A DNA stretch of 64,000 bases, taken from the NCBI GenBank assembly GCA_963719225.1, contig CAVRAY010000001.1:1408001-1472000 (forward strand), in the 5' to 3' direction. The translations under genes were made by a program, and so were the position numbers. The notes under the pieces are model-generated. The model did no database searches. It was not told the DNA's origin and saw nothing but the letters and a program-made list of their open reading frames with translations. Positions 9,001-25,794 of the stretch are shown here, in pieces. Numbering within the stretch: position 1 is the first letter of the stretch; every line of letters begins with the position of its first letter. This DNA comes from Thermoanaerobaculia bacterium (GTDB taxonomy: Bacteria; Acidobacteriota; Thermoanaerobaculia; UBA5066).

Positions 9001-12000
9001 CTCTACGACGGCGCCGGCCGCCTGATCAAGGAGACCAGGCCGACCGGGGGCTCGACGAAATACGGTTACGACCTCGATGGCCGGGTCAAAGCCCGCGTGA
9101 CGGCGCAGGGGGGTGCCTCGGTCAGCGAGACGGACTACGGCTACGACGGCGCCGGGCGACTCGCGTCCATCCTGCGTCCGGACGGCACGACCGAGTCGTT
9201 CACGTACAACGGCGACGACACCGTCGACATGTGGACGAACCGCTCCGGAATCGTCGTCACGCATCGCTACGACGCGGCGAACCGACTCATCGGCCGATTT
9301 CCGGGCTCACGGCCAGCGGGTTCGAAGGTCGTGGTCGACGGCGGCGACACGTACGACTACGACGAGGCCTCGCGACTAAGGGCCGCGGACCGAATCGACA
9401 CGCCGACGGGCGCGCCTGGCGTCTTCGCCGCAAACGCTGCCGCGCGAGCCGCGTTCACGGGCTACGACGCGGCGGGCCGGCCCGCCGAGGAACGCATCGG
9501 CGCGCGCGACGCCCTCAAGCGCTTCTACGACACGTGGTCTCGTGAGGTCGCGGTGGGCGTGCCGGCCGGAGTCGGCCGCCACGGCGTGGGCTCGTTTTCC
9601 GGATACACGCGCGACTTCGACTCACTCGACCGCCTCGTGCTCATGACCGCGAACGCCGGCGGGCCGAAGCTCGGCGCGCGCTGGGATTGGGGCGGGACGG
9701 CGCGGCTCTATGGCATCACGACCGACAACGCACTGAAGACAGCGCACCGGATGAGCTACCTCGGCTCGGGTCTCGGCGCCCAACCGGGAGGCACCGTCGC
9801 GACCCCGTGGCAGCTCGGCACGATCTCGGTGGCGTCGGCGGACCCGAAGCAGCCCGTCACCGACGAGCCGACGACCCTGTGGGGTCAGTTCGGGTTCGGC
9901 TACCGCACGGGCGACGGCGTCAAGCGCGGCCGCGAGGTCATGGATCGCCAGACCGGCAAGCCCAGCCTCTTCTCGAATCAGGGCTGGTCGTTCACCCCCG
10001 ACAACGGTCTCAGGCTCCAGACCGCCGAGGCCGGCCGGGGCACCCGCGACGGCTCGTCGGCGCCTTCCATCTTCGAGAAGTTCGACGTGACCTATGGTCT
10101 CGGCGACGAAGTGAACCTCCTGTCGAGAGAGGGAGGCGCGAACTCTTCGACGCTCCTCGCCACCGGCGCCGAAGGCCGCATCGCGAAGCGAAACGGCATC
10201 GGCTTCGAGCACGACCTCGAAGGCAGAAGGCAGAAGGACGACCGCTTCAGCTACGTGTGGAGCTGGAGGGGAGAGCTCCTGTCCGTCACCGTCAACGACT
10301 GCTGGCCTGCCGAACAAGGCTCGCAGCCCACGTCCGGCTGTCCCGCCAACCAGTACGGCTCTCCCTACGCCAAACATCAGATCCGTTACGAATACGACGC
10401 TCTCGGAAGTCTACTGGCCCGCGAGCACCTCGGCGCGCAAGCCACGCCCGGCGACGACACCACGCGCTCCTTCATCGAAAGGCGCGAATACCTCTGGGAC
10501 GGCTCTCATCTCATGGCCGAGGTCGGAAAAGCTCAGGACGGCACACTTCGGTGGAGAAAGAGCTACGTCCCTGGAGCCTCGGGCCTGGACGACGCCGTCC
10601 AGGAGAGGATCGAGATCTACAGCCTCTCGGGCGTCGACGTCGTTTCGGACACGCTCTACACCTTCCTGAGAGACGAACAGAACTCCGTCGTCGCCCTCGT
10701 CGAAGAGAAAGTCGGAGCCGACCCAGCAAGCCCGCCCACCCCCGTCCGCTACCACTACAGCCCCTACGGCGAAGCCCACGCCGAAACCGGCTCCGAGCTT
10801 CTCTTGACCCGCTTCGACTCCAGCCTTCACGGCGTCACGAAACCCGACGGCACCACCGTCTCGCAGACGACCGCAGCTGACGCCGTCGACGGAGGAATCC
10901 GGCTCACCCTCACGCTCCCTCCCGACCCCTCGACCCTGGCCGCGGCCCTGCTGGTCGAAAAGAGAAATACCGACGGCACCTGGGGAGCCCTCAACGCGGC
11001 CGACCTGGCCCTCGGACAACGCGCGGGCGCCCCCGAAGAGCTCGAGCTCCTACCCCTGACGGGCTTCACGAAGGGCGCCACCTATAGAGTCGGATTCCAG
11101 AGCCTCAAGGACACGCTCGGCAGAACCGCAACCCTCCCGAACTTCGCCCTCGACATCCCGACGGACGGCACGCCCGTCCTTCTCGACAGAACCTACCCCC
11201 TCGTCTACGACAGCTACTTCGCGTCAGGGACGACCGCCTCAGGCGCATTTCCCGGCGGCCAGAACCTCCTCTTCCAGGGCCTGTGGACAGACCCCGTCAC
11301 GGGCATGGGCTACGCGAGAAACCGCTGGTACGACGCCAGAAACGCCGTCTGGCTCTCCCAGGATCCTCTCGAAGACAAGGACTCCCCGAACCTCTATGGC
11401 TTCGTCGGCGCTAGACCGCATGAACTAACTGACCCGATGGGAACTTGCGCGGAGCTCGATGACATTCCGTGCGGCGAGTACCTCAAGGAGTTCGGTGACC
11501 AGTTCCTCTTCCAGAACCTGTGGGAGACGACGAGGAGATCAGGGCGCTTCCTGCTCGGTGAAGGAAAGGGAGCGGTCAAGGCTGTTCCGAATCTGGCGAA
11601 GGGCGTCGCACATGTGGCGATGCATCCAGTGAAAACGATTCAGGCGCTCGGCACCGCAGCTGGTGAGGCAATCGCTGACCCGACGGGAACGGCGAAGCGG
11701 CTCGGCAATGCAGTGATGAACGCGGATCCCGACAAGGCGGCTGAATTCACTGGCGGTGCGCTGGCCTTGGCTGGGCTTGGCGCCGCGGCAAAGACCACGG
11801 AGGGCTTGGCAGCTCTTGGTCGACTCGGAAGGGCTGGTGAGGTCGTTGAAGCGGTAGATGCTGGCTCCAGCCTCGCAAAGTATGGTGACCTCGGTTACGT
11901 CGAGGGACTGGCTGCGAGAGCGAGCCGATTCGCGTTGAGGCGAGCCCAGGCAGGGGGAGCGACAGGCCGAGTCGCCGGGAGAAGAGCAGAGGAAATATTC

Positions 12001-12336
12001 GAGAAGTACGCCTATCAGCTCGAGCAACGTCTCATGGCTGCGGAGAGTCCCTTCCGCATCACCCTGCAGCCAGCAGCGGACGCCGCCACCGGTGCGCGGG
12101 CTCTCGCGCGAACACGCGGCTCCTTTGTCGGGCGATGGGTGAGCGGCACGAAGCGGTTGGACTATGGCTTCTACGAGTCTGTGTCGGGAGGAGCGAACTC
12201 TTCGCGGATTCTTTCGGGTGGTGATTTCACTGTGTCCCCGGGTGGCGCTTTTGGGATCCCGGCTGAGTATTCACAGGCATTCCCGGGCTCGACGATCTTC
12301 GGCATTGACCCTCTAAATATCGTTAAGGGACCATGA
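1..12336 (+). CDS. rhs: Giant Rhs/YD-repeat polymorphic toxin, 5'-truncated (>4100 aa): Ig-like/beta-rich N-terminal region, DUF6531-like segment, YD repeats, Rhs core, C-terminal toxin
   Basis: Frame is open from base 1 (the track starts it at GTG 70). Contains many YD/YxYD..GR repeats, SVSLVSGE...RTYRS...GWNSS, the core motifs YHYSPYGE and MGYARNRWYD...QDP...NLYGFV...TDPMG, then a divergent C-terminal tip. Confidence 0.95.
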   Translation, partial: GPAGSGLSATFAAGALSSPVDLGVRLTALSGQGLPEPLPLGWTPLAAAELRLVPGGVGDDALPEGTGTPFTANAVHLTLTLPSGVPSNAELFAARYDVAAGAWLALPIPVRATGAGGADTVTVALAGPGPVAVIAPDVDPATRPPVMPTSLDAPLIGTDLPSVLPALAAAIGLDPPIVSPTGRATARVLARSADGTTPWPSGLAVQAYLDEKLILSGGGELYEAPFSSDLILYHPPLAPADVGATAPGAVGSLTFRISPSPRAAQVLLDTGYENVRLFPFTDQLERGQVLGPAGGSVSSPDGVELFVPESALAQKAVVRARLLSSSELAALPVPAGYSLVAAVRVDLSGFPLARGATLKLNAPAGLPADAVDDPRLVLASFVDQPDDGRGAFARVVARVALLPAAGSVPAKLVGAPEVSGSTLPLSGITGEGVFLFLHANAPIGFVTGRVTAPNGAGYAGSRVTTPGLGTADLSQPGGLYALSAPAGSPTLNALHPTLGVSGTATVPSLPKGQIAQIDIILAPTPPRIVSLQPPAGATNQPVGTTVAILFSAPLDPASVTQTVLTVELANTDGTGTGLLFGGNVALSSDRTTVAFSSARPLPPGRTILASLKGGIRSFDGTPYAGTLPVTWTFTTSTAFLPGGNIHPEKIRLLLPVNGTAQIVGADSALPLVLGGTTPWSVWADVDGALACPSITTYPANTNGGFTATVGCPPTANVTLSSRVFIHVLDPTGTQAATWRLGPFVTPDGTGFVAPPGEETVFTTIDGIQVTSPAAAFDVPTLVKVTKKPVDSLGVAVNPGLEMAAVLDVDFEGTAHETLRLRIPVVTASPVGGVVFAGKPIDLPWGRKLQILDLGRLVDDGKGGKLISTLEADQPEDSAPDASTPASSAMAGSGHQALGGRRAQALPKKLLQSIALEFTARATAGFIMGATLELSAITGHVEPAIVGATFFVLYNALADAMVFQAVAKNWNGRFVLPSTGSAFTIVKRDLATGWILSEKSYSAIAPSPGRFVNLGDLEPAATDPPRLIDASPVAVIRFKAPTVLAGKEENLRLRLDVEAHSTDQDTTSLRAVPGEVLPDLSTVELYNLSQTSRAKAVVQAGDFNVGPLGAKSGEDLLAAVSPSDVDADDLSELSFSFSRPLASVADPATLVTLTDCGELNRSAPGPPACPSPLPVPLNVTQEANRTRLRAGLFGPLARGHLYRVELKSLTSDSTPSLAYPPTDPTVFSFATRSGQSGPIGSTVGSGVLALGDTNSARDLLKFGNLLLVGSASGKLLAMDASDPVKPVLFARLAPEAGDQLRAFASDGHNRLFYNTRLGASWAVKAVRVEDVWQALPSTCPQGLPSEPAWLTALPCFAAVPGGVKSAFALGSTTGLTPSEFLTLTGSLPTGTPSDLQILVDDDTVGPYPLEEFFDKVPGSGTPPSGPPSSPDQFYSISLTINTAGHVFDRGAGICGEPGFDKKQRVTIDDLTTGQSWSVDVPNPSTSGMSLAVAIRARKRDQIQVRYNKTAIGYLAIVGSGVSAFDLNRFYDTLTPATGGTQGNKSECGRRLGTFEGAGISFPTCGRVTPDSLAFTPALAVATGKGFIDVFSVLTHFGAGNLVAASGGPGSLQAIEMKCLVDTLPASTPTTPAPSPSYRAVTLALNTMWIDRHISPGPSPGSFVGPQTPVPPSGVRGDLAFYSLGPAGIDVYDVTGRGSMALIGRFWAKDHTVYRLASDAAGRRLFAGGQDKNGNPIIDVWDISQANGGPSKDGVFPDPAGSADTRLLFTLKAPWDTNHIGLEESTGFLYTWGVNGPGVEGGFVVPTRDPGFIFSGLYRPENESRAAGATPLPSVQVDTQDLVPLGVQTQVSTADEADPEKSKADERTATAAFKVRISLPGTLGEKLVAKVQTLRSLPDARFLSKDDVGPLVAAPGGGGWPERDVFVTLRRLVPVAGTSSDRLQQPFNLYESDEVVLLLADPRAKLAYWKSKQGLKSPAQVADEKTQCRRCGRPSYLPNDTGNTEIPVKELLAAGPWVRAYLAEPPGGDAPTAAALDFFRQQGDNFPAPSGAVQVSGHADEVPSPIQISLAEPALNPAVWSAEAGTSVSLVSGEAILAATDHAVEGRGVGFVFDRTYRSGVLGYGPLGAAGWNSSLFAHLRMLPHTGEMEFHDGGGRVWKFSPPALGGCVDVDHYESDGAFCIPKGLYVKVEVVGNGAAFRLVGRNHDTMLFDSNGRLLELSDRHRRGASDPSSQGNTLSLFYDGAGYLVRAEDELGRSYKFTYDQKPLFSGGAENPQYGLLTRIEDFATPPRVVGFIYDDLRRLLQVQLPDVTSSIAGSSYTQPTVLYHYDFTKALQDTAPLHGPDFPKFKLTGFRLPDAGADRVTLDYVPETGRVTSLAVPPSPPNSGTVAWQFQNPDPSSDAGPLNGISLVAPWQLRADYTFTSGRINTVSETVETLRGTDPSPPAGSDPPAVALTTTYVYLDDGRIDHITWPDGHVTRQDYQGTDRLEKANVSHVMAEAGGAPTGTAQHGTPTSEIRSYVDNIPETTADPEGRAVTSAVSVPSGSASPGYDAAPGQTAVSGNSKYDPFGRMKEFTGAGSNGTHVTMGFGKDAKGRPDRGFASEIARGAVKESLKYDEDGMGPRGNVTTRETSFQTSSKYEYDEWDRPVKETLGLSASGDFDAVPDAIVTRAFDPIGHLKVERRRQMDLDNGEVETVYEYNDREQLVSVTVNNLAQAAPGQTSGLATGKTRYSYNRSGQLSDVTSPHGVTTHYEYDAAGRVKSEQVSSSGIRKRAYDEMGRTVWMTDGDIGVWRGRFDAWGRMYQEDLPTGASIEREYDAAGGIKRETTFSGDPKSASSNKLAETLAHVTSFGAVNEVQEMLTASPASYRVTLKQYDGSGRLAGVTSGPTDAIQRTDLTVQYDDAGRPVVQTDGGNNETHHDYGGTAPWPVRTFVLEAVPGSPSRPKTVESEFRRDAFGRVVKETRSSGGTLVSIVQTGYDQVGNVKSVESGIGSRSEYLYDGAGRLIKETRPTGGSTKYGYDLDGRVKARVTAQGGASVSETDYGYDGAGRLASILRPDGTTESFTYNGDDTVDMWTNRSGIVVTHRYDAANRLIGRFPGSRPAGSKVVVDGGDTYDYDEASRLRAADRIDTPTGAPGVFAANAAARAAFTGYDAAGRPAEERIGARDALKRFYDTWSREVAVGVPAGVGRHGVGSFSGYTRDFDSLDRLVLMTANAGGPKLGARWDWGGTARLYGITTDNALKTAHRMSYLGSGLGAQPGGTVATPWQLGTISVASADPKQPVTDEPTTLWGQFGFGYRTGDGVKRGREVMDRQTGKPSLFSNQGWSFTPDNGLRLQTAEAGRGTRDGSSAPSIFEKFDVTYGLGDEVNLLSREGGANSSTLLATGAEGRIAKRNGIGFEHDLEGRRQKDDRFSYVWSWRGELLSVTVNDCWPAEQGSQPTSGCPANQYGSPYAKHQIRYEYDALGSLLAREHLGAQATPGDDTTRSFIERREYLWDGSHLMAEVGKAQDGTLRWRKSYVPGASGLDDAVQERIEIYSLSGVDVVSDTLYTFLRDEQNSVVALVEEKVGADPASPPTPVRYHYSPYGEAHAETGSELLLTRFDSSLHGVTKPDGTTVSQTTAADAVDGGIRLTLTLPPDPSTLAAALLVEKRNTDGTWGALNAADLALGQRAGAPEELELLPLTGFTKGATYRVGFQSLKDTLGRTATLPNFALDIPTDGTPVLLDRTYPLVYDSYFASGTTASGAFPGGQNLLFQGLWTDPVTGMGYARNRWYDARNAVWLSQDPLEDKDSPNLYGFVGARPHELTDPMGTCAELDDIPCGEYLKEFGDQFLFQNLWETTRRSGRFLLGEGKGAVKAVPNLAKGVAHVAMHPVKTIQALGTAAGEAIADPTGTAKRLGNAVMNADPDKAAEFTGGALALAGLGAAAKTTEGLAALGRLGRAGEVVEAVDAGSSLAKYGDLGYVEGLAARASRFALRRAQAGGATGRVAGRRAEEIFEKYAYQLEQRLMAAESPFRITLQPAADAATGARALARTRGSFVGRWVSGTKRLDYGFYESVSGGANSSRILSGGDFTVSPGGAFGIPAEYSQAFPGSTIFGIDPLNIVKGP
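10873..11350 (+). repeat. 478-bp rhs core segment, direct repeat of 26113-26590
   Basis: Identical by eye from gcagctgacgccgtcgac to aacgccgtct; offset 15240. Confidence 0.95.
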
Positions 12337-12806
12337 TCGAGATAGCTCCAGCGCAGATTCCCGACATTCGAGCTCGTTTGAAGAGTGCGTCAGCTGAACT
12401 AGGGGACGCATGGGCTCAGATGGAGTCGATCGAAGTACAGCCTCGTCGGCAGCAGGCTCCCTTCGTCCAGCTCGCGCACGACGAACTGCCTGGAGAGGAA
12501 ATTGACGCGATCCTCGCGTATGAGGGTATTCCACAATTCAACGGTGCCATCGGAATCCCTTTTCCGTCTCGGCCTGTCCAACTCGGTAAGAAGGAACTAC
12601 TCGTTTTTCCGATTGACGGGCTAAGAGAGCACCTGAGCTTGCACGAACCCGATCTTGTGGCGCGACTCCAGAAGAGTGGGGGCATGTCCGGCTACATCGC
12701 AGCCCAGCAGGGTGAAATCTCAGCCAGGGAGTATCTAATCGGTGGACTGCTGGAGTGCATCAATTACTGCGTCGAGAACCGCCAAGCGCTTGAAATCAAG
12801 TGGTGA
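12333..12806 (+). CDS. Putative immunity protein for the Rhs C-terminal toxin
   Basis: 157 aa, ATGA overlap with the rhs stop, lower GC, no recognised family. Confidence 0.75.
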   Translation: MIEIAPAQIPDIRARLKSASAELGDAWAQMESIEVQPRRQQAPFVQLAHDELPGEEIDAILAYEGIPQFNGAIGIPFPSRPVQLGKKELLVFPIDGLREHLSLHEPDLVARLQKSGGMSGYIAAQQGEISAREYLIGGLLECINYCVENRQALEIKW

Positions 12807-12813
12807 CGATTCC

Positions 12814-12890
12814 CGCGCGTCACGCTGCGTGCGTGAGCGGCCACGCGTGACGAGCGCGCCTGGTCGGGCACGCATCGCGCCGCGCTGAAG
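12814..12890 (+). repeat. ~75-bp imperfect direct repeat, copy 1 (copy 2 at 17526-17600)
   Basis: Shared cgctgcgtgcg...ggccacgcgtgacgagcgcgcctgg...gcacgcatcgcgccgcgctg. Confidence 0.85.
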
Positions 12891-12921: not shown

Positions 12922-14361
12922 ATGAGTTGGTCCGAGGTGCAGCTCGCCTCACTGGCTGAGACCTACTTCCGGAGCGGCGGCGCGAGATGCCCGGGCGACA
13001 ACACGCCGCTGAAAGTGGAAAAGCTGCAATACGTCGGCAGGAAGACCGCGGATCTCTTCCTGCACTGTCGGCGCTGTGGCACGAGCGCGACTTGGGGAAA
13101 TCAGGAGCCCACGAGTGGAGCCGGTGTGTGGCCAGCGGCTGCCCGGAAACTGATTGTGGACAGCTACTGGGAGCACGGGTATGCGAACTGCCCAGTGGAC
13201 GGAGCGAATCTGACGGTCCACGAATCCCGGCAGCTGGGGAGCAAGGGTGGTGCGCACCTCCTCGTGCATTGCGTGCGCTGCGGGCGCCACTTTTCGGACG
13301 ACGGACAGGGCGAAGATCAGGAAGAAAAGGACCCTTTTCTCGCTAAGTACGAGGTCATCAGGTCACTCGGGAAAGGAGGGATGGCGACTGTCGACCTCGT
13401 GCGCGACAGGCGAACCGGTGACGAGCTCGCAGCAAAGACGATCGCGCCCGAGAGGGCACGTGAGGCTGGCTTCATCGAGCGTTTCCGTCGTGAGACGGGA
13501 ATCCTGCGAGGTCTCTCGCACCCGAACGTCGTGAAAATCATCGAGGAATTTACGCAGGGCGATCGTGCCACCTACGTCATGGAGTACCTGTCGGGCGGCG
13601 ACCTGGGGCAAGCCATCTCTGACCCGAATCGCGATGTGCACGCACTGGCGCAGCTCTTCGCGGACGCTGCGGAGGGCGTGACCCATCTTCACGGACGAGG
13701 TTTCATTCACCGCGACCTCAAGCCGAGCAACATCCTGATTGGGAATGAAGGGCGAGCGCGGGTCTCTGACTTCGGGCTGGCCATCCAGGCCGAAAGGAAT
13801 GAAGCGGTTACTCGCACGGGAGAATTTCTCGGCACGAAGATGTATGCCGCTCCCGAACAACTCCGCGGCGCGCGGGGCGTGAATGAGAAGGCGGACATCT
13901 ATTCCCTGGGCCTGATCGCCATTCAGGTCCTCAGCCGGAAGCTGAGTCAGCCAGAACTCCACCTCTGGACGGATGGAACTGATCCGGCGTCGCGTGCGCT
14001 CGCGAACGCCTTGAACCAGGATCCGGCGAAGCGCACTATCACCCCGAGGGAGCTCGCGTTGGCCGTGTGTGAACGGGTGCTGATGGAGATGGCCGTAACG
14101 GCGCAGCCGAGCCAGCAGCTCACAGCTGGCGAGAAGAACACGCTGCTGGAAATGATTCCGGACGACGACAAGGTGGACGAACACCTCGCGGCTCGCGGCC
14201 TCAGGCGCAAAGGGAAAGGACGTCCGCGTGCGGGGGAGCTTTACCTCGGCAGAGGCGGGCCGATGAGCGACGGCAGGGGCATCTATCGGCGCGAAGTCGA
14301 CAACACTCCGGGAAACGGATTCTCCGGCGCCGATCTCTTTGAGCTGCTGGAGCGGGGCTGA
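12922..14361 (+). CDS. Hanks-type Ser/Thr protein kinase with two N-terminal Zn-ribbon-like repeats
   Basis: LGKGGMATV, AAK, HRDLKPSN, DFG, APE and DIYSLG motifs; the N-terminus has CPxD-x~23-HCxxCG twice. Confidence 0.9.
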   Translation: MSWSEVQLASLAETYFRSGGARCPGDNTPLKVEKLQYVGRKTADLFLHCRRCGTSATWGNQEPTSGAGVWPAAARKLIVDSYWEHGYANCPVDGANLTVHESRQLGSKGGAHLLVHCVRCGRHFSDDGQGEDQEEKDPFLAKYEVIRSLGKGGMATVDLVRDRRTGDELAAKTIAPERAREAGFIERFRRETGILRGLSHPNVVKIIEEFTQGDRATYVMEYLSGGDLGQAISDPNRDVHALAQLFADAAEGVTHLHGRGFIHRDLKPSNILIGNEGRARVSDFGLAIQAERNEAVTRTGEFLGTKMYAAPEQLRGARGVNEKADIYSLGLIAIQVLSRKLSQPELHLWTDGTDPASRALANALNQDPAKRTITPRELALAVCERVLMEMAVTAQPSQQLTAGEKNTLLEMIPDDDKVDEHLAARGLRRKGKGRPRAGELYLGRGGPMSDGRGIYRREVDNTPGNGFSGADLFELLERG

Positions 14362-14448: not shown

Positions 14449-14868
14449 TCAGCGGCTGGCACGTCTGCGGATGGAGAGGAGCACCTTCTCTATCTTCGCG
14501 GGCGTCCGTGTTTCGCACTCCCAGATCACGCGAACGGACCAGCCAGCGCGCCGGAGAGCAGCCGTCTTTCGGCGATCACGTGCGGCGTTTTCGGACCGCT
14601 TCTTCAGCCAGAAATCCGGATTTGTAGCAGGCACGACCTGCCCGTAGCGGCAGGCGTGCAGGTGCCAGAAACACCCGTGGACGAAGATGGCGGTGCCGAA
14701 CTTCGGGAAGACGAGATCAGGGCGGCCCGGGAGACCGGCACGATGAAGGCGGAAACGCATGCCCAGCCTGTGCGCGATGCGGCGGACGACGAGCTCGGGC
14801 GTCGTGTCGCGGCCGCGCACGGCCTGCATGTTTCGTCGGCGCTGCTCTGCAGTAAGGACGTCCGTCAC
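14449..14868 (-). CDS. vsr: Very-short-patch repair endonuclease
   Basis: MTDVLTAEQRRRNMQAVRGRDTTPE, LPGRPDLVF, FVHGCFWH and VIWECE motifs. Confidence 0.95.
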   Translation of the reverse strand: MTDVLTAEQRRRNMQAVRGRDTTPELVVRRIAHRLGMRFRLHRAGLPGRPDLVFPKFGTAIFVHGCFWHLHACRYGQVVPATNPDFWLKKRSENAARDRRKTAALRRAGWSVRVIWECETRTPAKIEKVLLSIRRRASR

Positions 14869-16030
14869 GAGCAGAGCGGACGGATCTTCTCGATGAAGCC
14901 CTCGACGGTCAGCAGATGTCGCCGGGTTTCGACGGGAAATTTCACGTGCAGAGGCTCGGGCACGACGAGCTGGACCTTCGCGTCACGCATCTCCTCGAGC
15001 TGTGCAGACGAGATGCCCTGCTGAATGGTGAGGATGTGCTTCAACGGGATACGGCGGGCCTCACGAACGACCTGTCGCCACCGGTCCTTGCACGTCGTCT
15101 TGACGCCGACGACGACGAGGCGATCATCGGGAAAGCTCTGCTGTCGGTACTGCTCTTCTCCAGGAATGATGATGTCGGGCCGGCCGTCCACGCCCCGTGG
15201 GCGCATCGTGTGTGGGATCCGCGCCTCGGAAAGGAGATAGTCCACGTGATTTTCGAGAGAGCGGCCGGCGCGCGACTTTCGACGATTCATGATGCGGCCG
15301 GCGGTGTCGAGAAAGTCGTCGACGTCGCGAAACGTCCGCGTGACCTCCGTCTGGCAGAGCTGGCGCTCCACGAGCCGAAAGAGCTTGTACTCAGCCTCGA
15401 CGAAATCGACGAGGCGCCGGTCAGGGCCAAGTGTGCGAATCGTTTCGATGCACTCGAGGAGCGCCTTGCGCGCCGCATCCGAGAATGCTCCACCCGTAGG
15501 GAAATTCGCGAGACCCGCAGCGAACGTCGGAAGTGTCGCTCGACACATGCGTCGGGCGACTCTACCTGCGGGACACCGCCACGGAAGACGGCCCACGTGT
15601 CGAGGATTGCGACGCCCAGGGCGCTCTGGACCTCGTCGATGTCGTCGTCGTGCTCGAGAACGAAGGCGCTGAATTCATGGAGCGATTTCGGGACGATGAC
15701 GAGCAGGTCTCCGACACATTCTTCGGCCATGAACGGAAAGCCCTTGCCGAACCGGGTGAGCCGATATTCGTTCTTCGCCTTTCCGTACCACTTAACGCGC
15801 GATTCGGTCGTGACGAGCCCGCCCTGCCACGTGACGCGCACCGTGCTCTCGTCGTTACGTCCCTTTTCGGGTCCGAAGGGGGCGAACAGCTCCCATGCCG
15901 ATATGGGCAGGTAATAGCCGTACTGATGGCCGCCTGTCAGGCCGACGTCATTAGGGGAAATGAACTTGAGGACCGCGTTTCCGTGCTCGAGCGCTTCTGC
16001 GATCGCTTCCTCGCAGGCGGGCGAGGGCAT
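14865..16030 (-). CDS. EcoRII-like type II restriction endonuclease (N-terminal effector domain plus catalytic domain), one frameshift near 15540
   Basis: N part has LKFISPNDVGLTGGHQYGYY and NEYRLTRFG; C part has NRRKSRAGRSLENH, RPDIIIPG and KTTCKDRWRQV. Confidence 0.88.
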
Positions 16031-16034
16031 TGCG

Positions 16035-17162
16035 TCAGGCTCTCTTACGCCCGTACTGGGCGAGGGGTGACTTCAGGAGGCAGCCCTTCTTTTCCAACTG
16101 CCAGCCGAGCGTCCGAAGGACTTCCCGGCCGACGGCCTCGACGACAGGAGGCACGACGGCGTTTCCGAACTGCCGATAGGCCTGCGTGTCCGAGACGACG
16201 ATCGGATACTCGTCGGAAAGCCCATGAGTCGCGCGCACTCGCGCGGCGTCAGGCGGCGTGGCGGCTTGCGCTTCCCCTGCGAGATGAGAATTTCGGAGCC
16301 GTCCTTGTAGTAGCGCGCGCTCAGCGTACGCGTGACGCCTCCGGGATCCGCGATTCCGAAGCCGAAACCGTTTCCCTTTTCCTTGTGGCGTCGCGCGTAT
16401 TCCTGGAGGTATGTCCAGAGGTGCTCGCTCAGCGTGTACTTATCCGGAGGATCTTTTTCCAGGATGTCCTGCAGCTTCGGGCGTGGGGCCTGTGGAGCTG
16501 CAGGGAACTCGAAGGGGGGAGCATCGCCGAAGACCCGGCGATCGAAGCAGACGATGAAGATGCGCTCCCTGTGCTGCGAGATCCAGGAAGCCGCATCGAT
16601 CACGGTGGCGTGGACCACGTAATCCAGATCCTGGAGCGTCTCGCGGATCACATTCCAGGTGCGGCCCGAATCGTGAGAGAGAGGATTTTTGACGTTTTCG
16701 AGGAGGGCGATCGGGGGCCGCTTCGCCTCGATCAGTGTGGCGAGCGTGAAGAAGAGATTCCCCGGTCGGCACACTTGAATCCGTGTGCGCGGCCGAGGCT
16801 CTTCTTCTTCGAGACGCCTGCGATCGAGAACGGCTGACATGGGAAGCCAGCAGCCATGATGTCGTGGTCAGGGATGTCTGGGAATTTCGGATGTCGCGGC
16901 GGCTCTTCTCGAACATGGTGACGTCTTCCGAGTACGGTCCACTCCGAGGAAAACACGCATGTGCCCGAGCCGCCGAGCGCGGTCTGAACCTCGATCCGGC
17001 GAAGAGATCGACGAACTTGAAGGGGAGAGCGCCGCACGGATTTCTCAACGACGGCGCCGGGCCGGAGAAGAGCGTCATCTGACCGCCGTCTGGGCCTTGC
17101 GCAGGACGACACGACGAACTCGCGTTTGGAGACGCCGTCACGGCAGATTCTCGCTGATCCAC
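16035..17162 (-). CDS. dcm: DNA cytosine-5 methyltransferase (Dcm/M.EcoRII-like), split over several frames by indels
   Basis: FVDLFAG, AGFPCQPFSIAGVSKKKSLG, LLENVKN, QHRERIFIV, TLSARYYKDGSEILI, PRRLTPRECARLMGF and SDTQAYRQFGNAV are spread over four track ORFs. Start codon uncertain. Confidence 0.88.
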
Positions 17163-17454: not shown

Positions 17455-17525
17455 CCTGCCTGCGGCCGCAGAGCTGACAGTGGTCCGAACCATGGCCAGC
17501 TCTTCGTGAATCGCTCGGCGATGCT

Positions 17526-17799: not shown

Positions 17800-17878
17800 T
17801 TCATGTCCCGCTGCGCTTCGCTCCGCGGGGCCACCCCGCGGGCCTCCGGGTCGCGGCTCGCTTCGCTGCGCCGCGACC

Positions 17879-17907
17879 TTTAACAGAACGTGGAGGTCGC
17901 TGTTAAA
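17879..17907. other. Degenerate Xer-like inverted site TTTAACAG-N13-CTGTTAAA
   Basis: 8-bp AT-rich inverted arms resembling the XerD arm TTATGTTAAAT. Confidence 0.4.
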
Positions 17908-18449: not shown

Positions 18450-18478
18450 GGTTTACATAGCCTTGGGTTATGTGAAAG
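18450..18478. other. dif/xrs-like site GGTTTACATAG-CCTTGGG-TTATGTGAAAG
   Basis: Right arm matches the E. coli dif XerD arm at 9/11; the left arm is an imperfect inverted copy; 7-bp spacer. Confidence 0.5.
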
Positions 18479-18535
18479 GCGAAGCCCGGAGGCGCGCGGG
18501 TGGGCTGCGTGCGCGAAGCGCACGCGCACAGGAGC

Positions 18536-18571
18536 AGTGCCGGGGCCGATAAACGCGTTTATCGGCCAGCG
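18536..18571. repeat. 36-bp inverted repeat, right arm, containing the 24-bp palindrome GGCCGATAAACGCGTTTATCGGCC
   Basis: Partner of 17764-17799. Confidence 0.9.
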
Positions 18572-18849
18572 AAAGGATGCAGCGCGCGTGACGGGAAGGG
18601 GAAATTGGGGCCACGCCTGGAACGCGCGCTGCGGAGCGCCCGGCACGAACGCCCCGCGCGCCGGAGCCCGCCGGGGCCGGGGGCGTAACGGGCCGTGCTC
18701 TTCGGAGGATGGGAGCGCGATCAGCTCACCTGTCGCGACGGCCGCTCCAGCGCGGTCACGGCGCTTGCGCGGGAGCGCGACGACGGAGCACGAGTCGCGC
18801 GGACGTGGTCGCGCGAGAGCCATTGCAAGCGTCCGTGACGCGCGGGAAG

Positions 18850-19537
18850 AGACGATGCGAGCTTCGTCTCGACCGCTTCGATAAACATCGACCGATGTCG
18901 AGGAGCGTCTGTGCCTCTGCGAGCATCTTGTCTCGTGTCCGCTTGCGCCGCTTGCGGCGGCTGCCCTTCAGGTCGATGTCCAGCTCGTGAATGATCTGAT
19001 TTCTGACCTCGAAGATCGGCCGCAGGTCTGCCGGGGACTTTCCGAGGGCCGAGGCCTCGACGCCGAGCGCTGCGGCAGCGCGAAACAACTGCTCAGCCGA
19101 CTGAAGGCTGTTTCCAGTCAGATCTTCCGTGTAATCGACGATAAGCGATCACGTAGAGACGCTGCGGAAAGAAGATGAGCTAGGAACTTCGTACCGCGGC
19201 GCGTGGATTCGTCATCCTCATTCTGGAGTCGGGACGCAACGAACCTCTCCAGACCTTCCTGAACCTTTTTGTCCTTCTTCAGGAGATCGACGAGGGTGTT
19301 GCGGATCAGCTGCTTCGTAAGCGAGTCAAGGCCTGCGCCAGCGAGAACAAGAGCAGCGCGCAGTAGATCCTGCTCGGCGTCGGTAGGAGCCCCCGCGGTC
19401 ACACCGCGGCTTTGCCTGACAACACCGAAGGCATCGTCGAAAGCCTTAACCGTCGTCTTTGCGTGATCCAAGATGAGCCTTGGGCTGGCGGTCTGAGGGT
19501 GGGGTGAGTTGCTCCGTGGTCGGCGCGCAACGGGCAT
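18850..19537 (-). CDS. HEPN-domain protein (putative RNase), frameshift near 19130, 3' end uncertain
   Basis: N part has DLLRAALVLAGAGLDS; C part has the Rx4H motif RNQIIH. Lies directly downstream of the XRE gene. Confidence 0.65.
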
Positions 19538-19542: not shown

Positions 19543-19983
19543 TCAGCTCGCCTTGGCGAGGAAGGCGTCAATGGTCCTGAGGAGGGCCTGCTGATCACGC
19601 TTGGGGAGGCGCTCGAGGTCTTGAAGGCGCCTGAGGAGCCGGCGGTTTTTGATTGCGCCATTTCCCTTGAGTTTCTCGAGGCCGAGAAGCTCGTCGGCCG
19701 AGACACGCAGGACCCGGGTCAACTCGACGATCGCCTGGCCGTGGAGCCGCAGCTCCCCGCGCTCGTAGTCCGAGACGACCGGCTGGGCGACACCGAGATG
19801 CTCGGCCAGCTCCATCTGGGTGATGCCGCGCTCGCGGCGAAGCCGTGAGAGGCGCTCCCCGATGGACTCTTTGTTTTTCCCGTCCGGCCCGTCTTGTCTG
19901 CCACGCCCGAGGCCTCCGTCCAGAAGATCGACGGAACGATCGTAGGGCTGGATTCCGGATGGTCCTGGTCGGGCATGTCGCAT
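19543..19983 (-). CDS. XRE/Cro-C1 helix-turn-helix regulator
   Basis: IGERLSRLRRERGITQMELAEHLGVAQPVVSDYERG; divergent from the primase. The true start may be ATG 19976 with an indel in the A-run near 19875. Confidence 0.9.
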   Translation of the reverse strand: MRHARPGPSGIQPYDRSVDLLDGGLGRGRQDGPDGKNKESIGERLSRLRRERGITQMELAEHLGVAQPVVSDYERGELRLHGQAIVELTRVLRVSADELLGLEKLKGNGAIKNRRLLRRLQDLERLPKRDQQALLRTIDAFLAKAS

Positions 19984-19994
19984 CCCTCTTGCAG

Positions 19995-20100: not shown

Positions 20101-23100
20101 ATGCCCCGCATCCCGAACGATCTCCTCGAGCGCATCAAGCACGAGACGCCGCTGCGGCTCCTCGTCGAGCGCTCGGGCGTCGTGCTGAAGGTCTCGGGCG
20201 AAAACGTCATCGGCCTGTGCCCGATGCACGACGACCACGACCCGTCTCTCGTGCTGACGCCATCGCGCGGTCTCTGGCACTGCCTGGGAGCGTGTCAGGC
20301 CGGCGGCACCGTGATCGACTGGGTCATGAAGGCCGACGGCCTCGATTTCCGCGAGGCCGTCGACAAGCTGCTAGCCGAATTCTTTCCTTTAGAAGCCGCC
20401 TCTCTCATCAGGCACGCAGCCGTCACGGAGCAGGCCTGCCCGCTCGATCTCGACGCCGACGACCAGACGCTCCTCAACCAGTACGCGGATTTCTGCCACG
20501 AGCTTTTCAAGACGACAGCCGAGCCGAAGGAGTACGCGGCTAAAAGACGGATCGCGTCCGACGAGCTCGTCTCGCATTTCAAGCTCGGCTACGCGAATCG
20601 CACGCTCGGCCTCCGTCTCCCGAGCGTGCGAGCCAGAGCCGGCCTGGCGCTCCGTATGCGCTTGCAGTCTCTCGGCATCCTCCGCGGCTCGGGCCACGAG
20701 CATCTCGTCGGCTCTCTCGTCATCCCGATTAGGGACAGCGCCGGCAACGTCACGGGCATGTACGGGAGAAAGACGCGCAACGACCTCCGGACCGGGACAC
20801 CTGATCACCTCTATCTCCCTGGCCCGCACCGCGGAGTCTTCAACGTCGAGGCTTTCGCCGAATCGAAGACGATCATCCTCACGGAGTCGCTCATCGACAC
20901 GCTCTCCTTCTGGGAAAGCGGTTTCAAGAACGTCACGTGCGCCTATGGCGTCGAGGGCTTCACCGAGGAGATTCTCGGAGCCTTCTCTTTCCACGAGATC
21001 GAGCGCTGCTACATCGCCTTCGACCGCGACGAAGCCGGCGACCGTGGTGCGACACGCGTCGCCGAGAAGCTCATGTCGGCCGGCGTCGAGTGCTTCCGCG
21101 TCCTCTTCCCGAAAGGGATGGATGCGAACGAAGTCGCCCGGAAGATGCACCCGGCCGAGAAGACGCTCGGACTCTTCATCCGGAGCGCCGAGTGGATCGG
21201 CAAAGGAAAGGGCCCGGAGAGACCGAAGAGAACCGAGAGGCCGGAAGAGGCGGCTAAAGAAGAAATGCGGGCAGCGGCCGGGCGGCCGGCTGCGCGCATC
21301 GAAGAGTCACGTGCTGCCGCCCCTGCTCAACTTCTTTCTTTAGCGGCTCCTGCGCCGCTGCCCGAAGCGCTGGCGCCAGCTCGCGAGCACGACGAGGCGG
21401 CTAAAGAAGAAAGGCCGGCCACGAGTCTGACGGCCACCACCGATCTCGACGAATTCATCCTCGTGGAAGGCGACCGCCGCTATCGCGTCCGCGGGCTCCG
21501 GAAGAATCTCTCCTACGGCTCGCTCAGGCTGAACGTCTTCGTCTCGCGCGACGGGGACCTCTTCGACGAGAAGTCACCGCTGGCCGGCTTCTTCGTCGAC
21601 ACCTTCGATCTCTACGCGGCGCGTGCCCGTGCCGTCTTCGAACGCCAAGCGTCTCTCGAGATGGGCGTCGAGGAGCGCGTCATCAAGCACGACCTGGGCG
21701 CCGTGCTGAGGCGTGCCGAGGAGCTGCAGCAGGAAGCGATCACGAAGGCGCTCGAGCCGAAGGCGCGCCCCGTCCTCATGAGCGCCGGGGACACCGAAGA
21801 GGCGATGAGGCTCCTGCGTGACCCGAACCTCCTCTATCGCATCCTCCACGACTTCTCCCGCTGCGGCGTCGTGGGCGAGGAAACGAACAAGCTCGTCGGC
21901 TATCTGGCAGCCACGTCCCGAAAGCTCGATCGCCCGCTCGCCGTCATCCTCCAGTCCTCGAGCGCGGCGGGCAAGTCGTCGCTGATGGAAGCGATCCTGG
22001 ATTTCATGCCCGAAGAGGAGCGCGAGAAGTACTCGGCGCTGACCGGCATGTCCCTCTTCTACTTCACCGAAGAGAAGAGCCTCAGGCACAAGATTCTGGC
22101 TGTCGTCGAAGAGGAAGGCGCCGAGCGCGCCAGCTACGCGCTCAAGCTTCTCCAGTCGGAAGGCGAGCTGTCGATCGCGTCCACGGGGAAGGATCCGCAC
22201 ACCGGGCGTCTCGTCACGCAGGAGTACCGCGTCGAAGGGCCCGTGATGATTTTCCTGACGACGACGGCCGCGGTCGTCGATGAAGAACTCCTGAATCGCT
22301 GCCTCGTCCTCTCCGTCGACGAGAACCGCGAACAGACGAAGAGGATCCACGAGCTTCAGCGTCAGGCCGAAACGATCGAAGGGCTCCTGGCCGCTAAAGA
22401 TAAGAGCAGGATCGTCCGCCTCCACCGCAACGCGCAGAGGCTCATCAAGCCTCTTCTCGTCGCGAATCCGTACGCAGCCCGCTTGACCTTCCTCGACGAC
22501 AGGACGCGCACGAGGCGCGATCACGTCAAGTACCTGACCCTCATCCGGTCGATCGCGCTCCTGCATCAGCACCAGAGGGAAGTGAAGACGATCGAGCACG
22601 AGGGGAAGGTCGTCGAATACATCGAGGCGACGCTCGAGGACATCGGGACCGCCAACAGGCTCGCGGCCGAAGTCCTCGGCCGCTCTCTCGACGAGCTGCC
22701 ACCGCAGACACGTCGCCTCCTCGAGCTCCTCGAAATAATGGTGACGAAAGAGAGCGAGCGGCTAAAAGTGGGAAGGGCCGACTTCCGCTTCACGCGCCGC
22801 GACGTACGCGCGCGCACGGGCTGGGGAGACACCCAGCTGAAGGTCCACCTGAACCGTCTCGTCGAGCTCGAGTACGTGCTCATCCATCGTGGGGGCCGCG
22901 GGCAGAGCTTCGTCTTCGAGCTTCTGTACGAGGGCCAGGGGAAAGACGGCTCGCGCTTCGTGCCGGGCCTCGTGGATGTCGAGACCCTCGGGCGTGAAGC
23001 CGAGCGGGCGGGGAAGAACGATGAGCAGCCGGGCCTCGGGCGGCCCCTGGTCGGCGGGCGGTCGGACTCCGGTCGGGCTGAAGAGACGCCGGGCCCGCCC

Positions 23101-23247
23101 GCTCCTGCAACTGCTTTTCTTCCTTTAGTCGCCGCGCGTTTCGACGAGGCGCTACTCGGTGGCGACCCCAAGGTGTCGTCGTACCAGGCCGAGGCAGCTA
23201 AAGAAAAAAGCTATCGGCCGCGGCGCTACTTTCTGCGCGGTGCCTGA
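20101..23247 (+). CDS. DnaG-like primase (CHC2 Zn finger plus Toprim) fused to a C-terminal P-loop NTPase
   Basis: CPMHDDHDPSL...WHCLGAC; ILTESLID and IAFDRDEAG (Toprim); ILQSSSAAGKSS (Walker A-like) and VVEEE (Walker B-like); low-complexity linker. Confidence 0.9.
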   Translation: MPRIPNDLLERIKHETPLRLLVERSGVVLKVSGENVIGLCPMHDDHDPSLVLTPSRGLWHCLGACQAGGTVIDWVMKADGLDFREAVDKLLAEFFPLEAASLIRHAAVTEQACPLDLDADDQTLLNQYADFCHELFKTTAEPKEYAAKRRIASDELVSHFKLGYANRTLGLRLPSVRARAGLALRMRLQSLGILRGSGHEHLVGSLVIPIRDSAGNVTGMYGRKTRNDLRTGTPDHLYLPGPHRGVFNVEAFAESKTIILTESLIDTLSFWESGFKNVTCAYGVEGFTEEILGAFSFHEIERCYIAFDRDEAGDRGATRVAEKLMSAGVECFRVLFPKGMDANEVARKMHPAEKTLGLFIRSAEWIGKGKGPERPKRTERPEEAAKEEMRAAAGRPAARIEESRAAAPAQLLSLAAPAPLPEALAPAREHDEAAKEERPATSLTATTDLDEFILVEGDRRYRVRGLRKNLSYGSLRLNVFVSRDGDLFDEKSPLAGFFVDTFDLYAARARAVFERQASLEMGVEERVIKHDLGAVLRRAEELQQEAITKALEPKARPVLMSAGDTEEAMRLLRDPNLLYRILHDFSRCGVVGEETNKLVGYLAATSRKLDRPLAVILQSSSAAGKSSLMEAILDFMPEEEREKYSALTGMSLFYFTEEKSLRHKILAVVEEEGAERASYALKLLQSEGELSIASTGKDPHTGRLVTQEYRVEGPVMIFLTTTAAVVDEELLNRCLVLSVDENREQTKRIHELQRQAETIEGLLAAKDKSRIVRLHRNAQRLIKPLLVANPYAARLTFLDDRTRTRRDHVKYLTLIRSIALLHQHQREVKTIEHEGKVVEYIEATLEDIGTANRLAAEVLGRSLDELPPQTRRLLELLEIMVTKESERLKVGRADFRFTRRDVRARTGWGDTQLKVHLNRLVELEYVLIHRGGRGQSFVFELLYEGQGKDGSRFVPGLVDVETLGREAERAGKNDEQPGLGRPLVGGRSDSGRAEETPGPPAPATAFLPLVAARFDEALLGGDPKVSSYQAEAAKEKSYRPRRYFLRGA

Positions 23248-24284
23248 TGGCCCGGCGTGGCGAGAAGCGCGTGTGGGCCTTCTCTGAGGCCTCGGATCCC
23301 GGCGGCCTCGTCGCGCTGATGCGGCTCTGGATCGAGTCGCTGCGCGTGCGCGGAATCTCCGCGAACACTGTCGTGCACTACGAGTGGGAAATCTCCGGCT
23401 TCATTCTCTGGTGTCACGAACGTGGCCTCGTGAGACCGGGTGAGATCTCGCGGCCGATCTTCGAGCGCTACCAGCGCTTCCTCTATCAGTACCGCACGGG
23501 CCACGGCCGGCCGCTGTCATTCCGAAGCCAGTACAAGCGGCTCGCCGCGCCGAAATACTTCTTCCGGTGGCTCGCGAGACAGGGCTATCTCCCATCCAGC
23601 CCCGCGTCCGATCTCGACATGCCGCGGCTTGGCCGGCGTCTCCCACGCCAGATCCTCACGGCCTCCGAGGCCGAGAAGGTCCTCGCGCAACCGGACCTCA
23701 CCGACCCCGTCGGCATCCGTGATCGCGCGATCCTCGAGACTTTCTACTCGACGGGGATCCGAAGAGGCGAGCTCGTCAGGCTGAAGCTCTACGACATTGG
23801 CTTCGAGAAGGGCACGCTCATGATCCGAGAGGGCAAGGGCCAGAAGGATCGCGTCATCCCGATCGGTGAGCGCGCGCTGAAGTGGCTCGAGAAATATCTG
23901 ACGGACGTGCGGCCTCATCTCGTCGTGCCTCCTGACGAGAGCGTGGTCTTCCTGACGTACATGGGCGTGCCGTTTCATCCCGACGCTCTTGGCCACGAAA
24001 TGAAGAAGTACCTGCAGGCATCGGGCGTCGGAAAAGAAGGCGCGTGTCACATCTTCCGGCACACGATGGCGACGCTGATGCTCGACGGGGGAGCCGACAT
24101 CCGTTACGTCCAGGAGATGCTCGGCCACACGAAGCTCGACACCACGACGATTTACACGCAGGTGTCGATCGACAAGCTCAAGAAGATCCACGACGCCACG
24201 CACCCAGGAGCGCGGCTCACGCCGCGAGCCGTGCCGGACGCCGAGCCTCAGAGCGCGGCCGAGGACGAAGATCCTTTCCTTTAG
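23247..24284 (+). CDS. XerC/XerD-like tyrosine recombinase
   Basis: RDRAILETFYSTGIRRGEL, GKGQKDR, HIFRH and LGH...TTTIY (complete R-K-H-R-H-Y set); TGATG coupling with the primase. Confidence 0.95.
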   Translation: MARRGEKRVWAFSEASDPGGLVALMRLWIESLRVRGISANTVVHYEWEISGFILWCHERGLVRPGEISRPIFERYQRFLYQYRTGHGRPLSFRSQYKRLAAPKYFFRWLARQGYLPSSPASDLDMPRLGRRLPRQILTASEAEKVLAQPDLTDPVGIRDRAILETFYSTGIRRGELVRLKLYDIGFEKGTLMIREGKGQKDRVIPIGERALKWLEKYLTDVRPHLVVPPDESVVFLTYMGVPFHPDALGHEMKKYLQASGVGKEGACHIFRHTMATLMLDGGADIRYVQEMLGHTKLDTTTIYTQVSIDKLKKIHDATHPGARLTPRAVPDAEPQSAAEDEDPFL

Positions 24285-24315: not shown

Positions 24316-25794
24316 ATGAAGAACAGGGCGCGCATCGTCTCGGGCCTCGCCGCGCTCGCTGCACTCTTCCTGGCGCCGATCGCCGAGGCATCCCTCTCGC
24401 GCTCGAGCACGCCGGCGCGCGGGGCACCCGCAATCACGCTCGCATCGCCCGCGTCCGAGCCTTCCGAGTTTTCTCTCTTCGAAGGCGACGAGCTCACGGC
24501 CGCTACCGCCGAATCAGAAGGCTCGCCGAGCTTCCATCCTTTAGCTGCCGTCTCGCTCCTCGACGAGCGCGAGCAGCGCGAGCTCGCGACGCCCCTCGAG
24601 ACAAGTTATCCGAAAACTCGCTACCGGGTTTTCGACTTCCTCGGGGCGCCTCTCCTCGGAATCGAGCGCGGTGTAAGTCTCGAACTGCACTGGGGATGCG
24701 CGTCTTTTAGCTGCGGATTTGCATCTGGGACCGTGGGCTTCCTGACGGAAGACCCGCTCGACGACATCGACAGCCCGAACGTCTACGGGTTCGTGGCCGG
24801 CAGGCCGCACGAATTTACGGATCCGGAGGGGCTGTTCTCGAGCTTGAACGCAGCCAAGGAAGGAGCGAAGACCCTCGCCCGAAACCTCGCGATCATCGGT
24901 GGAATCGGGATCGTCACGGGCTTCTGTCCTCCTTGTGGAGCGGCGCTGGCGATCGGAGCGACGGGATATCTCGCTTACGGCGTTCAGAGCGACATCAACG
25001 ACCGTCTCAAGCAGGGTCAGAACGGAGCGCAGGCCACCGCCGGCGCCATGGGCAACCTCACGGGTATCGGAGGCATCACCGAAGGCATCACGAACAAGGA
25101 CTTCGTCACCGGCGCCGAGCTCAACCTCACGGACGAGGAACGAGAAAAGCGGGTAGGGCAGGGCGCCGGCAACCTCCTGAGCTGGTTCGCGGGCCCGAAG
25201 GTATTCAAGGTCGGAGCGAAGTTCGGCGCCGGCGCCAGAGTGAAGTTTGACGCGTGGCGAGCCAGCGAAAACACCTGGCCGTCGATCAAGCCGGAGGGCG
25301 AGTGGGAGTTTGAGTCGCCGGAATCCCCCGCGACGACGTCGAATTACATAGGTCCAGAACGCCAATTGGGCCCCGCCCGAACAGCGACTGAGATGCGTAA
25401 CTCCCCAGGCGTGGCAACGGGAGGCGAACGACTGCCGGAAGTCGGTGGCAAGTGGTTGCGAGGCCAGCGGAATAACGCAGGTGTGATACCGAGACAAATC
25501 GCTGACCAGCTGCGTGGCCGCTCATTCAACAGATTCAGCGAGCTTCAAAGTGAGTTCTGGAGCCTGGTTGCGGACGACCCAGTGCTCGCTTCAGGGTTTG
25601 GAAGACGAAATCTCGCTCGAATGCGCGCGGGGCGATCGCCATTCGCTCCCCCCGGAGAAAGCACCGGGCAAGGGTGGGCACAGAAGGTCTATAACCTCCA
25701 TCATCGGACACGGGTAGGGGAAGGAGGGGGCGTCTACGACCTTGATAACCTATTGGTGGGCACGCCTCGTTACCATCAGAGTTTCCATAGGTAA
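24316..25794 (+). CDS. Signal-peptide leader (~141 aa) fused to the Rhs core tail, a pre-toxin region and a colicin/pyocin-type HNH DNase
   Basis: MKNRAR-hydrophobic-AEA, then FLTEDP...NVYGFV...TDPEG; the C-terminus has IPRQIADQLRG, FWSLVADDP and YNLHH...GGGVYDLDNL...TPRYH...H. Confidence 0.88.
   Translation: MKNRARIVSGLAALAALFLAPIAEASLSRSSTPARGAPAITLASPASEPSEFSLFEGDELTAATAESEGSPSFHPLAAVSLLDEREQRELATPLETSYPKTRYRVFDFLGAPLLGIERGVSLELHWGCASFSCGFASGTVGFLTEDPLDDIDSPNVYGFVAGRPHEFTDPEGLFSSLNAAKEGAKTLARNLAIIGGIGIVTGFCPPCGAALAIGATGYLAYGVQSDINDRLKQGQNGAQATAGAMGNLTGIGGITEGITNKDFVTGAELNLTDEEREKRVGQGAGNLLSWFAGPKVFKVGAKFGAGARVKFDAWRASENTWPSIKPEGEWEFESPESPATTSNYIGPERQLGPARTATEMRNSPGVATGGERLPEVGGKWLRGQRNNAGVIPRQIADQLRGRSFNRFSELQSEFWSLVADDPVLASGFGRRNLARMRAGRSPFAPPGESTGQGWAQKVYNLHHRTRVGEGGGVYDLDNLLVGTPRYHQSFHR
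24738..25313 (+). repeat. 576-bp near-identical repeat of 26589-27164 (Rhs tail plus pre-toxin region)
   Basis: Offset 1851; a few mostly synonymous mismatches concentrated at the 3' end; ends at codons WEF. Confidence 0.95.

Follow-up and report, generated by a model that had tools for sequence, protein, structure and literature searches.

The window analysed here is a stretch of 64,000 nucleotides from a Thermoanaerobaculia bacterium of the Acidobacteriota (assembly GCA_963719225.1, contig CAVRAY010000001.1, positions 1,408,001 to 1,472,000 of the forward strand). It carries an rhs gene whose core is split by a 13,389-bp interval (11351-24739) that holds a toxin tip of its own, a primase-helicase and a tyrosine recombinase. 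An earlier note on this DNA had proposed that the interval is a mobile element that inserts into the Rhs core and swaps the toxin tip. The source genome comprises 4.75 Mb in two contigs and contains a single copy of the element. The host rhs gene starts about 6.9 kb upstream of the window and encodes about 6,417 aa with a signal-peptide-like N-terminus. YD repeats, a core with two DP motifs, a variable tip and an adjacent immunity gene mark its product as an Rhs polymorphic toxin.

Junctions at the rhs locus

70..11349, plus strand: host rhs body with Ig-like domain, DUF6531, YD repeats and Rhs core, up to ...RWYDARNAV
11344..11351, plus strand: left junction (attL), crossover inside the CT at 11349-11350
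11350..12336, plus strand: core tail carried by the element (WLSQDP...DPMG), then the new tip; the reading frame continues that of the host rhs
24721..24729, plus strand: conserved element-side motif (GCA TCT GGG), a candidate site for the recombinase; the junction lies 15 nt beyond its TCN triplet
24733..24740, plus strand: right junction (attR), crossover inside the CT at 24738-24739
24739..25794, plus strand: displaced core tail (FLTEDP...) and colicin/pyocin-type HNH DNase tip
25804..26034, plus strand: colicin/pyocin-type immunity gene
26113..28259, plus strand: classical orphan module with 478 bp of core, the empty-site junction (26589-90), a different tip and an SMI1/KNR4-like immunity gene

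Three junctions meet at one CT dinucleotide, as the earlier note had reported, and every sequence it quoted is found in place. By self-BLAST, 26113-26676 is 95.2% identical to 10873-11436, and 26589-27164 is 98.4% identical to 24738-25313. Leftward of its junction, the orphan copy matches rhs for 478 bp without a mismatch. Past the CT, 29 of 90 bases differ from the left junction, beginning with the first base after the CT. Against the right flank, the orphan runs for 216 bp without a mismatch, counted from the CT. A 2-bp interval shared by two breakpoints is no chance overlap. Deleting 11351-24739 in silico gives an open rhs frame with the HNH tip at its end, the rebuilt gene, with immunity gene behind, that had been predicted. 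The rejoined sequence differs from the orphan at 9 of 1,052 positions, all of them at least 216 bp downstream of the junction. The element ends, when joined in silico, also leave an open frame, of 469 aa. At the CT of this copy, 18 of 30 bases match to the right and the identical run is 2 bp.

Relatives and empty alleles

The primase half is present in 21 of 63 genomes of the family, the source genome included. One genome of the same genus (G019) holds a different rhs (44% at the amino acid level) with two elements in tandem, and all three of its junctions fall at the same codon. Element ends within the clade read GTGGGA in seven of nine copies and GTGGGC in two, and host ends vary as well, so that only the T is common to the clade's junctions. 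The claim that about 2 bp are shared at the target site (attB) is borne out for this copy, as CT, and does not extend to the clade as a conserved CT. The six terminal bases of the element stay at the right junction in all nine copies; the rhs of G023 is the sole case in which they stand left of the T, at a left junction. An independent rhs fragment (P0045, 85% over 310 aa) bears the FLTEDP tail and represents an empty-type allele. The exact FLTEDP/HNH empty allele was not found in 28 same-genus genomes searched. A sister class, which likewise adjoins Rhs cores, combines the same type of primase with two tyrosine recombinases in tandem behind it (G013, G022, G043, G059:C11, G060, L189-L223).

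Empty alleles, whose existence had been anticipated, do occur for the Escherichia coli member, as rhs genes without the element at the same locus. The recombinase was found in 56 of 5,426 complete E. coli genomes, with a median of four copies. In five of six carriers inspected, it lies in the vgrG-rhs locus beside yddH/nhoA. Three of the 60 matches listed for the last tip of the CREC-2 array follow it from the junction base onward, and in strains JNE151685 and A34 this tip sits on a full rhs with no element. Comparison of empty (L231, L232) and filled (L229) alleles gave flanks at least 99% identical up to and from the junction base, with a 16.6-kb array as the insert. The run shared at this junction is 15 bp and lies wholly to the right. 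Together with the boundaries of homologues, these alleles support the view of a mobile element with the Rhs core as its target. An intact recombinase at one end, and exact ends with an empty counterpart (the window orphan, P0045 and the E. coli strains), agree with the general class of integrative elements that use a tyrosine recombinase.

Three kinds of candidate circle were considered. A circular 8,758-bp Shigella 'plasmid' was rejected as proof of a site-specific circle: its core is complete, and it runs colinear with a single unit of a chromosomal tandem. An 11.3-kb circular record from Lonsdalea has truncated cores only and may be a collapsed tandem. Contigs with joined ends were assembled from reads (X2), where three runs contained 5-6% of the words and yielded contigs from relatives only; these may be tandem or right junctions.

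The family across phyla

Primase homologues number more than 8,000 among the matches listed and come from loci in many phyla. A piece of Rhs core lies at most 2.6 kb downstream in 52 of the 94 primase-recombinase copies with enough downstream DNA (near-duplicates counted). The target codon mostly tracks the recombinase clade in a tree of 38 rows, and clades differ in the core codon they use. The suggestion that homologues would share one core codon as their boundary thus holds among close relatives and fails in other clades.

Thirteen hand-picked element/host pairs, each with a host core and a right junction, were compared base by base (left out were L102, L167, L169, L190 and L199, which have a full core downstream, indels or the two-recombinase arrangement, and the duplicates L084 and L230). 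Identity amounts to 4-14 of 30 bases left of the junction versus 17-30 of 30 to its right, and identical runs extend 0-3 bp leftward and 1-30 bp rightward. The step in identity falls 15 nt past the TCN of the element-side motif, independent of the codon used. Exceptions are a spacing of 16 nt in Photorhabdus and variant motifs in enterobacteria and in G070/G065. In frame at core-model positions 9-60, the motif occurs in 24 of 44 elements versus 0 of 31 host cores, a count made in the same data from which the pattern was derived; outside these positions, it occurs in 5 of the 31 host cores. Reading the joined ends as an inverted repeat was also tried and was abandoned, as it fits Lonsdalea and not most clades.

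Rhs is not the only host. In a Paraburkholderia CdiA gene, both tandem units meet the pre-toxin region at one point past the same motif. An Enterobacter haemagglutinin array has the motif and gave no host match. In Leptospira (L260:5503-18411), an XRE-primase-recombinase module lies behind a gene for a 2,075-aa M23 peptidase, possibly a third delivery platform. At L229:6101 and L258:14987, an immunity gene is directly followed by a core tail that opens precisely with the DP codon; no element intervenes, and these tails may be scars or minimal cassettes. Enterobacterial copies (L078, L079, L229, L257-L259) have a SymE gene behind XRE, and in some of them DinJ/RelE follows the recombinase.

Gene content of the element

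12333..12806, plus strand: likely immunity gene of the new tip, by position; no family match
12807..12890, plus strand: 84-bp repeat, 89% identical to 17519-17600
12922..14361, plus strand: cargo Ser/Thr kinase
14449..17100, minus strand: cargo Vsr, EcoRII-like endonuclease and C5 methylase, the last two split over several frames
17519..18850, no strand: conserved non-coding region with a long imperfect inverted repeat, candidate origin
18756..19537, minus strand: frameshifted gene behind XRE with an RxxxxH motif; no family match
19543..19983, minus strand: XRE-family repressor, divergent from the primase
20101..23247, plus strand: primase-helicase with CHC2 zinc finger, Toprim and a predicted MCM-like AAA+ domain
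23247..24284, plus strand: tyrosine recombinase, NF002331/PRK01287 (410.8 bits, cut-off 371)
24316..24738, plus strand: 141-aa leader with a signal-peptide-like start, in frame with any core tail behind it

Family scans agree with the gene content first read from the sequence: tip, immunity gene (by position only), cargo, XRE, primase-ATPase and Xer-like recombinase. The new tip is predicted to be a nuclease. The model of its C-terminal 148 aa, with a predicted local distance difference test (pLDDT) score of 93.7, is similar to restriction-endonuclease folds, though the scores are modest. The best structural match had a Z score of 7.3 (root-mean-square deviation 3.0, 110 aligned residues), and the top rows, all with Z below 8, share the restriction-endonuclease fold. 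The best Foldseek E-value was 0.03, and a search of the ESM Atlas returned only unnamed clusters, below 0.85. Across 15 representatives of the tip family, D91 and D112 are invariant, and three of the 15 stand behind a pre-toxin HINT domain.

The recombinase resembles Xer proteins, with no more than a short extension at its N-terminus. Its scores miss the equivalog cut-offs of XerC and XerD (235 versus 335 and 231 versus 330 bits) and that of IntI (TIGR02249, 102.9 bits versus 265). R172, K197, H268, R271, H294 and Y303, which we take to be its catalytic residues, are present and invariant across six aligned homologues. The C-terminal half of the primase was modelled as an MCM-like AAA+ domain (pLDDT 72.8), and every listed Foldseek row was an MCM (best E 1.6e-9). 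A sequence search of the PDB with this ATPase half gave no match. Neither did the primase half match any of 50,697 phage records, and viral contigs were likewise without a relative.

The sequence TTAGCYGC occurs nine times in the element (17609, 18226, 20536, 21250, 21397, 22758, 23194, 24541 and 24707) versus 31 times in the genome; 0.09 would be expected per element length, and the density is about 100-fold above the genome rate. It points along the minus strand throughout the primase gene and along the plus strand to either side. The non-coding region at 17519..18850 is 81-89% identical in close homologous elements. Its segment 17615-18846 also has two copies of 71-73% identity elsewhere in the genome (G000:C1:3645454-3646616 and 3663511-3664673), 18 kb apart and near an integrase-like gene.

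The 84-bp repeat (12807-12890, 17519-17600) flanks the defence cargo on both sides and may be a cargo-capture site. It is also found behind tip/immunity pairs in homologous loci (G019, G021, G007, L157, L161). Frameshifts are confined to cargo (14865-17100, 18756-19537), and rhs, primase and recombinase are intact; the broken genes are pseudogenes or unpolished long-read indels. The product of 18756..19537 may be HEPN-like.

A gene set like that of P4 and the phage-inducible chromosomal islands (PICI), with integrase, divergent repressor and primase-replicase, is present. No virion gene was found in the gene scan of the interval, and no AlpA, small terminase or capsid-redirecting gene in the Pfam scan. 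Nor was any Pfam family of relaxases or type IV secretion systems (T4SS) seen among the interval open reading frames (ORFs) scanned, a set of 27 ORFs of the region that leaves aside some small ones. The joined ends showed no attC-like hairpin (z -1.34 to +1.24 for eight strands of 140 nt), and a promoter and terminator scan stayed at chance level.

A leader fused to the displaced tip

ORF 24316-25794 begins within the element: the leader comes first, then the tail and tip that were displaced. Its first 185 aa, used as a query, found 47 proteins. Forty of these meet a core tail at the same position (37 by pattern, three by eye); of the rest, one has an earlier join, two have it at the last DPxG, and four differ in other ways. 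Behind 42 leader homologues lie 33 tip groups, and named toxin families were matched by 7 of the 38 that were scanned. The displaced tail behind the leader retains both DP motifs, which belong to the Rhs autoprotease region (PMC8636562). Cleavage of this tail may fail without the shell. A functional leader fusion is conceivable, and we lean slightly against it.

Mechanism and alternatives

We consider it very probable, from comparative sequence evidence, that a widespread mobile element occupies the Rhs core at a fixed codon and that its own tyrosine recombinase made the exchange from a circle. That insertion was site-specific and driven by the element is a part of this reading we hold with still greater confidence. 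In this reading, the recombinase would catalyse the tip exchange. The circle would link the right end to the element's own core tail. One crossover between circle and host core would then place the element tip on the host shell and move the old tip to the right end. As with IntDOT, such an exchange would need no more than one or two matching bases where the strands are cut, and low identity would be no obstacle for this class of enzyme. A single crossover also accounts for tandem stacks, because each junction re-creates the core register. Replication of the circle would fall to the primase-MCM protein, which may also resolve a single strand exchange. The near-constant position of the six terminal bases on the right suggests one exchange completed by replication, and we judge the chances of such a one-sided event to be evenly balanced.

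After insertion, the toxin exported by the host would be that of the element, and in a population of killers the immunity gene linked to it would favour the element. Thanks to its leader, the displaced tip would in this clade remain open to translation and might also be exported. Because no relaxase, T4SS or virion gene was found, transfer would depend on a helper or on free DNA.

Several observations weigh against this reading. Forty-two of the 94 copies have no core tail within 2.6 kb, and 18 of these are accounted for: 11 join at the last DPxG, two at 3.3 kb, and five lie behind haemagglutinin genes. The motif as written is missing in 20 of 44 elements, including those of E. coli, where a variant is present. 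The close recombinases L128, L141 and L145 use three codons (core positions 33, 29 and 21), which is hard to square with a fixed site. Around the crossover, inverted symmetry was not seen as a general feature, Leptospira homologues did not show the Rhs pattern, and no free circle with joined ends was established among the Shigella, Lonsdalea and contig candidates. G055 carries the orthologous rhs (80% over 11.4 kb) with a WLSQDP tail, and the tip region behind it begins similarly. A single immunity gene follows, the next gene downstream is the same, and no element turned up in the 20 kb examined; a WLSQDP tail alone is thus no proof of insertion. The leader is missing from enterobacterial copies. 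In the six closest comparisons, its non-synonymous divergence is slightly below the synonymous (pN 0.19-0.28 versus pS 0.33-0.44), and selection on it as a protein appears weak. Two TTAGCYGC sites lie inside the leader, so part of its conservation may be at the DNA level.

The best-surviving alternative is a homology-guided, one-ended insertion in which the recombinase cuts at the element-side motif only, the carried core tail selects the target by pairing, and replication completes the event. In that case the DNA that is carried, and not the protein, would dictate the target codon, as the three codons of the close recombinases would suggest. The motif is kept on the element side only, resemblance to the host is confined to the right of the junction, the six terminal bases are at the right junction in every clade copy and at the left only in the G023 rhs, and the primase-MCM gene is always adjacent. 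Against these points, 18 of 30 matching bases with a 2-bp run are weak grounds for pairing in this copy, and most clades keep to one codon. We regard both the insertion route and this way of choosing the codon as unlikely, yet deserving of serious attention.

The published model (PMC2935791) would have circles with core fragments recombine by RecA, with the primase and recombinase genes as passengers. The orphan at 26113, with its 478 bp of upstream core, resembles such an event and suggests that a homologous route also acts at this locus; the 8.8-kb Shigella circle, with its full core colinear with a tandem unit, would fit as well. For the element, such a route is very improbable: the crossover falls within 2 bp, past which 18 of 30 bases match, the tail is of host type from the first base of the right junction, and the distance to the element motif is constant across phyla.

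A slimmer chance still attaches to insertion by host XerCD or another host recombinase, in the manner of integrative mobile elements exploiting Xer (IMEX); the element's own enzyme would then serve only to resolve dimers as the circle replicates. In favour are the Xer-like character of this enzyme, with its short N-terminal extension, and the other tyrosine recombinases of the genome. The enzyme nevertheless falls below the XerC/XerD cut-offs and above that of PRK01287, the target codon tracks its tree, and junction sequences vary by clade. An assembly artefact arising from the 478-bp and 576-bp repeats, which the two contigs and the cargo frameshifts might bring to mind, is barely credible, as each junction joins a repeat to unique sequence that no reordering of repeats can create, and the same architecture recurs in G019 and in complete E. 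coli genomes.

Neighbouring features

28446..29527, plus strand: a second orphan tip, distantly homologous to the new tip (28%), with its likely immunity gene

A second rhs locus (G000:C2:549800-555700) has an orphan and a core tail reading FLSPDP, and no element was found there. An insertion sequence-like element at 32390-33870 consists of a helix-turn-helix transposase-like ORF (32496-33827) flanked by 53-bp inverted repeats.

Comparison with known systems

P4, PICI and the Staphylococcus aureus pathogenicity islands (SaPI), and SCCmec with its MCM-like Cch combine a repressor divergent from the replication module, a primase-helicase, an integrase and defence cargo, and lack virion genes. 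The element has the same module set. It differs in uniting primase and MCM-like domain in one chain, in stacking in tandem, in the absence of the AlpA, terminase and capsid-redirecting genes from what was seen, and in inserting into rhs or cdiA rather than a tRNA gene, the attB of a core gene or rlmH. Other elements supply a replacement end for the gene they split, as e14 does in icd, SXT in prfC and tRNA islands at their targets. Here the replacement is a different functional domain with an immunity gene, and integration therefore changes the gene product.

Tn916-type elements, like CTnDOT, are exchanged by a tyrosine recombinase with only one or two identical bases at the cut, much as proposed here. 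IntDOT of CTnDOT needs such identity, one or two bases long, at its first cut (PMC2817482). Unlike these two, the element has no conjugation genes, a lambda-type arm-binding domain was not detected, and it targets a codon of a toxin gene with a new fusion protein as the product. Integrons, polyimmunity loci (PMC3482391) and recombinase-associated acquired interbacterial defence (rAID) arrays also form ordered arrays at one site beside a tyrosine recombinase. In contrast, each unit of the element has its own recombinase and replicase, fuses into a reading frame, and lacks an attC-like hairpin.

Closest in outcome is C-terminal displacement of Rhs toxins (PMC2935791, PMC4927057, PMC5727410), in which a new tip arrives via a circle and the old tip and immunity gene are pushed downstream. 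In the published model, circles with a core fragment recombine with the host core and displace the C-terminus, and the founding paper states that no integrase was known at such loci (Jackson 2009, PMC2935791). Integrase genes were later noted among orphan modules, their role left open and their ends unmapped (Ruhe 2016, PMC4927057; Steele 2017, PMC5727410), and XerC/D-like genes beside polyimmunity loci (Zhang 2012, PMC3482391). Unlike such modules, what is described here is an element complete in itself, with ends tied to a codon. The system was not assigned to any of the families tested, and its parts (tyrosine recombinase, primase-helicase, gene-restoring ends) are each known. No published description of it or its ends was found in the literature searched, which omits most subscription journals, and PMC3150448, PMC5131962, PMC10210955, PMC6287321, PMC13183296 and 10.1101/2024.07.17.603846 yielded nothing relevant; we put the chance that one exists elsewhere at about one in four.

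Significance

The gain of Rhs and CdiA tips from other cells and the pile-up of displaced ones have so far been ascribed to homologous recombination with hypothetical circles. The recombinase of this element is likely a missing engine of toxin swapping. With the element come an integrase and its ends, a motif that it may bind, a replicase and, in E. coli, empty alleles matched to filled ones. It may have been hidden by the usual annotation of its recombinase as 'xerC'. What emerges is a selfish element that would borrow the host's secretion machine to select for itself. The broadest version, a self-replicating toxin-exchange engine of Rhs and CdiA in many phyla, with its codon set by the carried core and with a leader in Acidobacteria that re-arms the displaced toxin, is put forward tentatively and is, on balance, doubtful. 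If the leader does re-arm the displaced toxin, every insertion would add a weapon rather than replace one.

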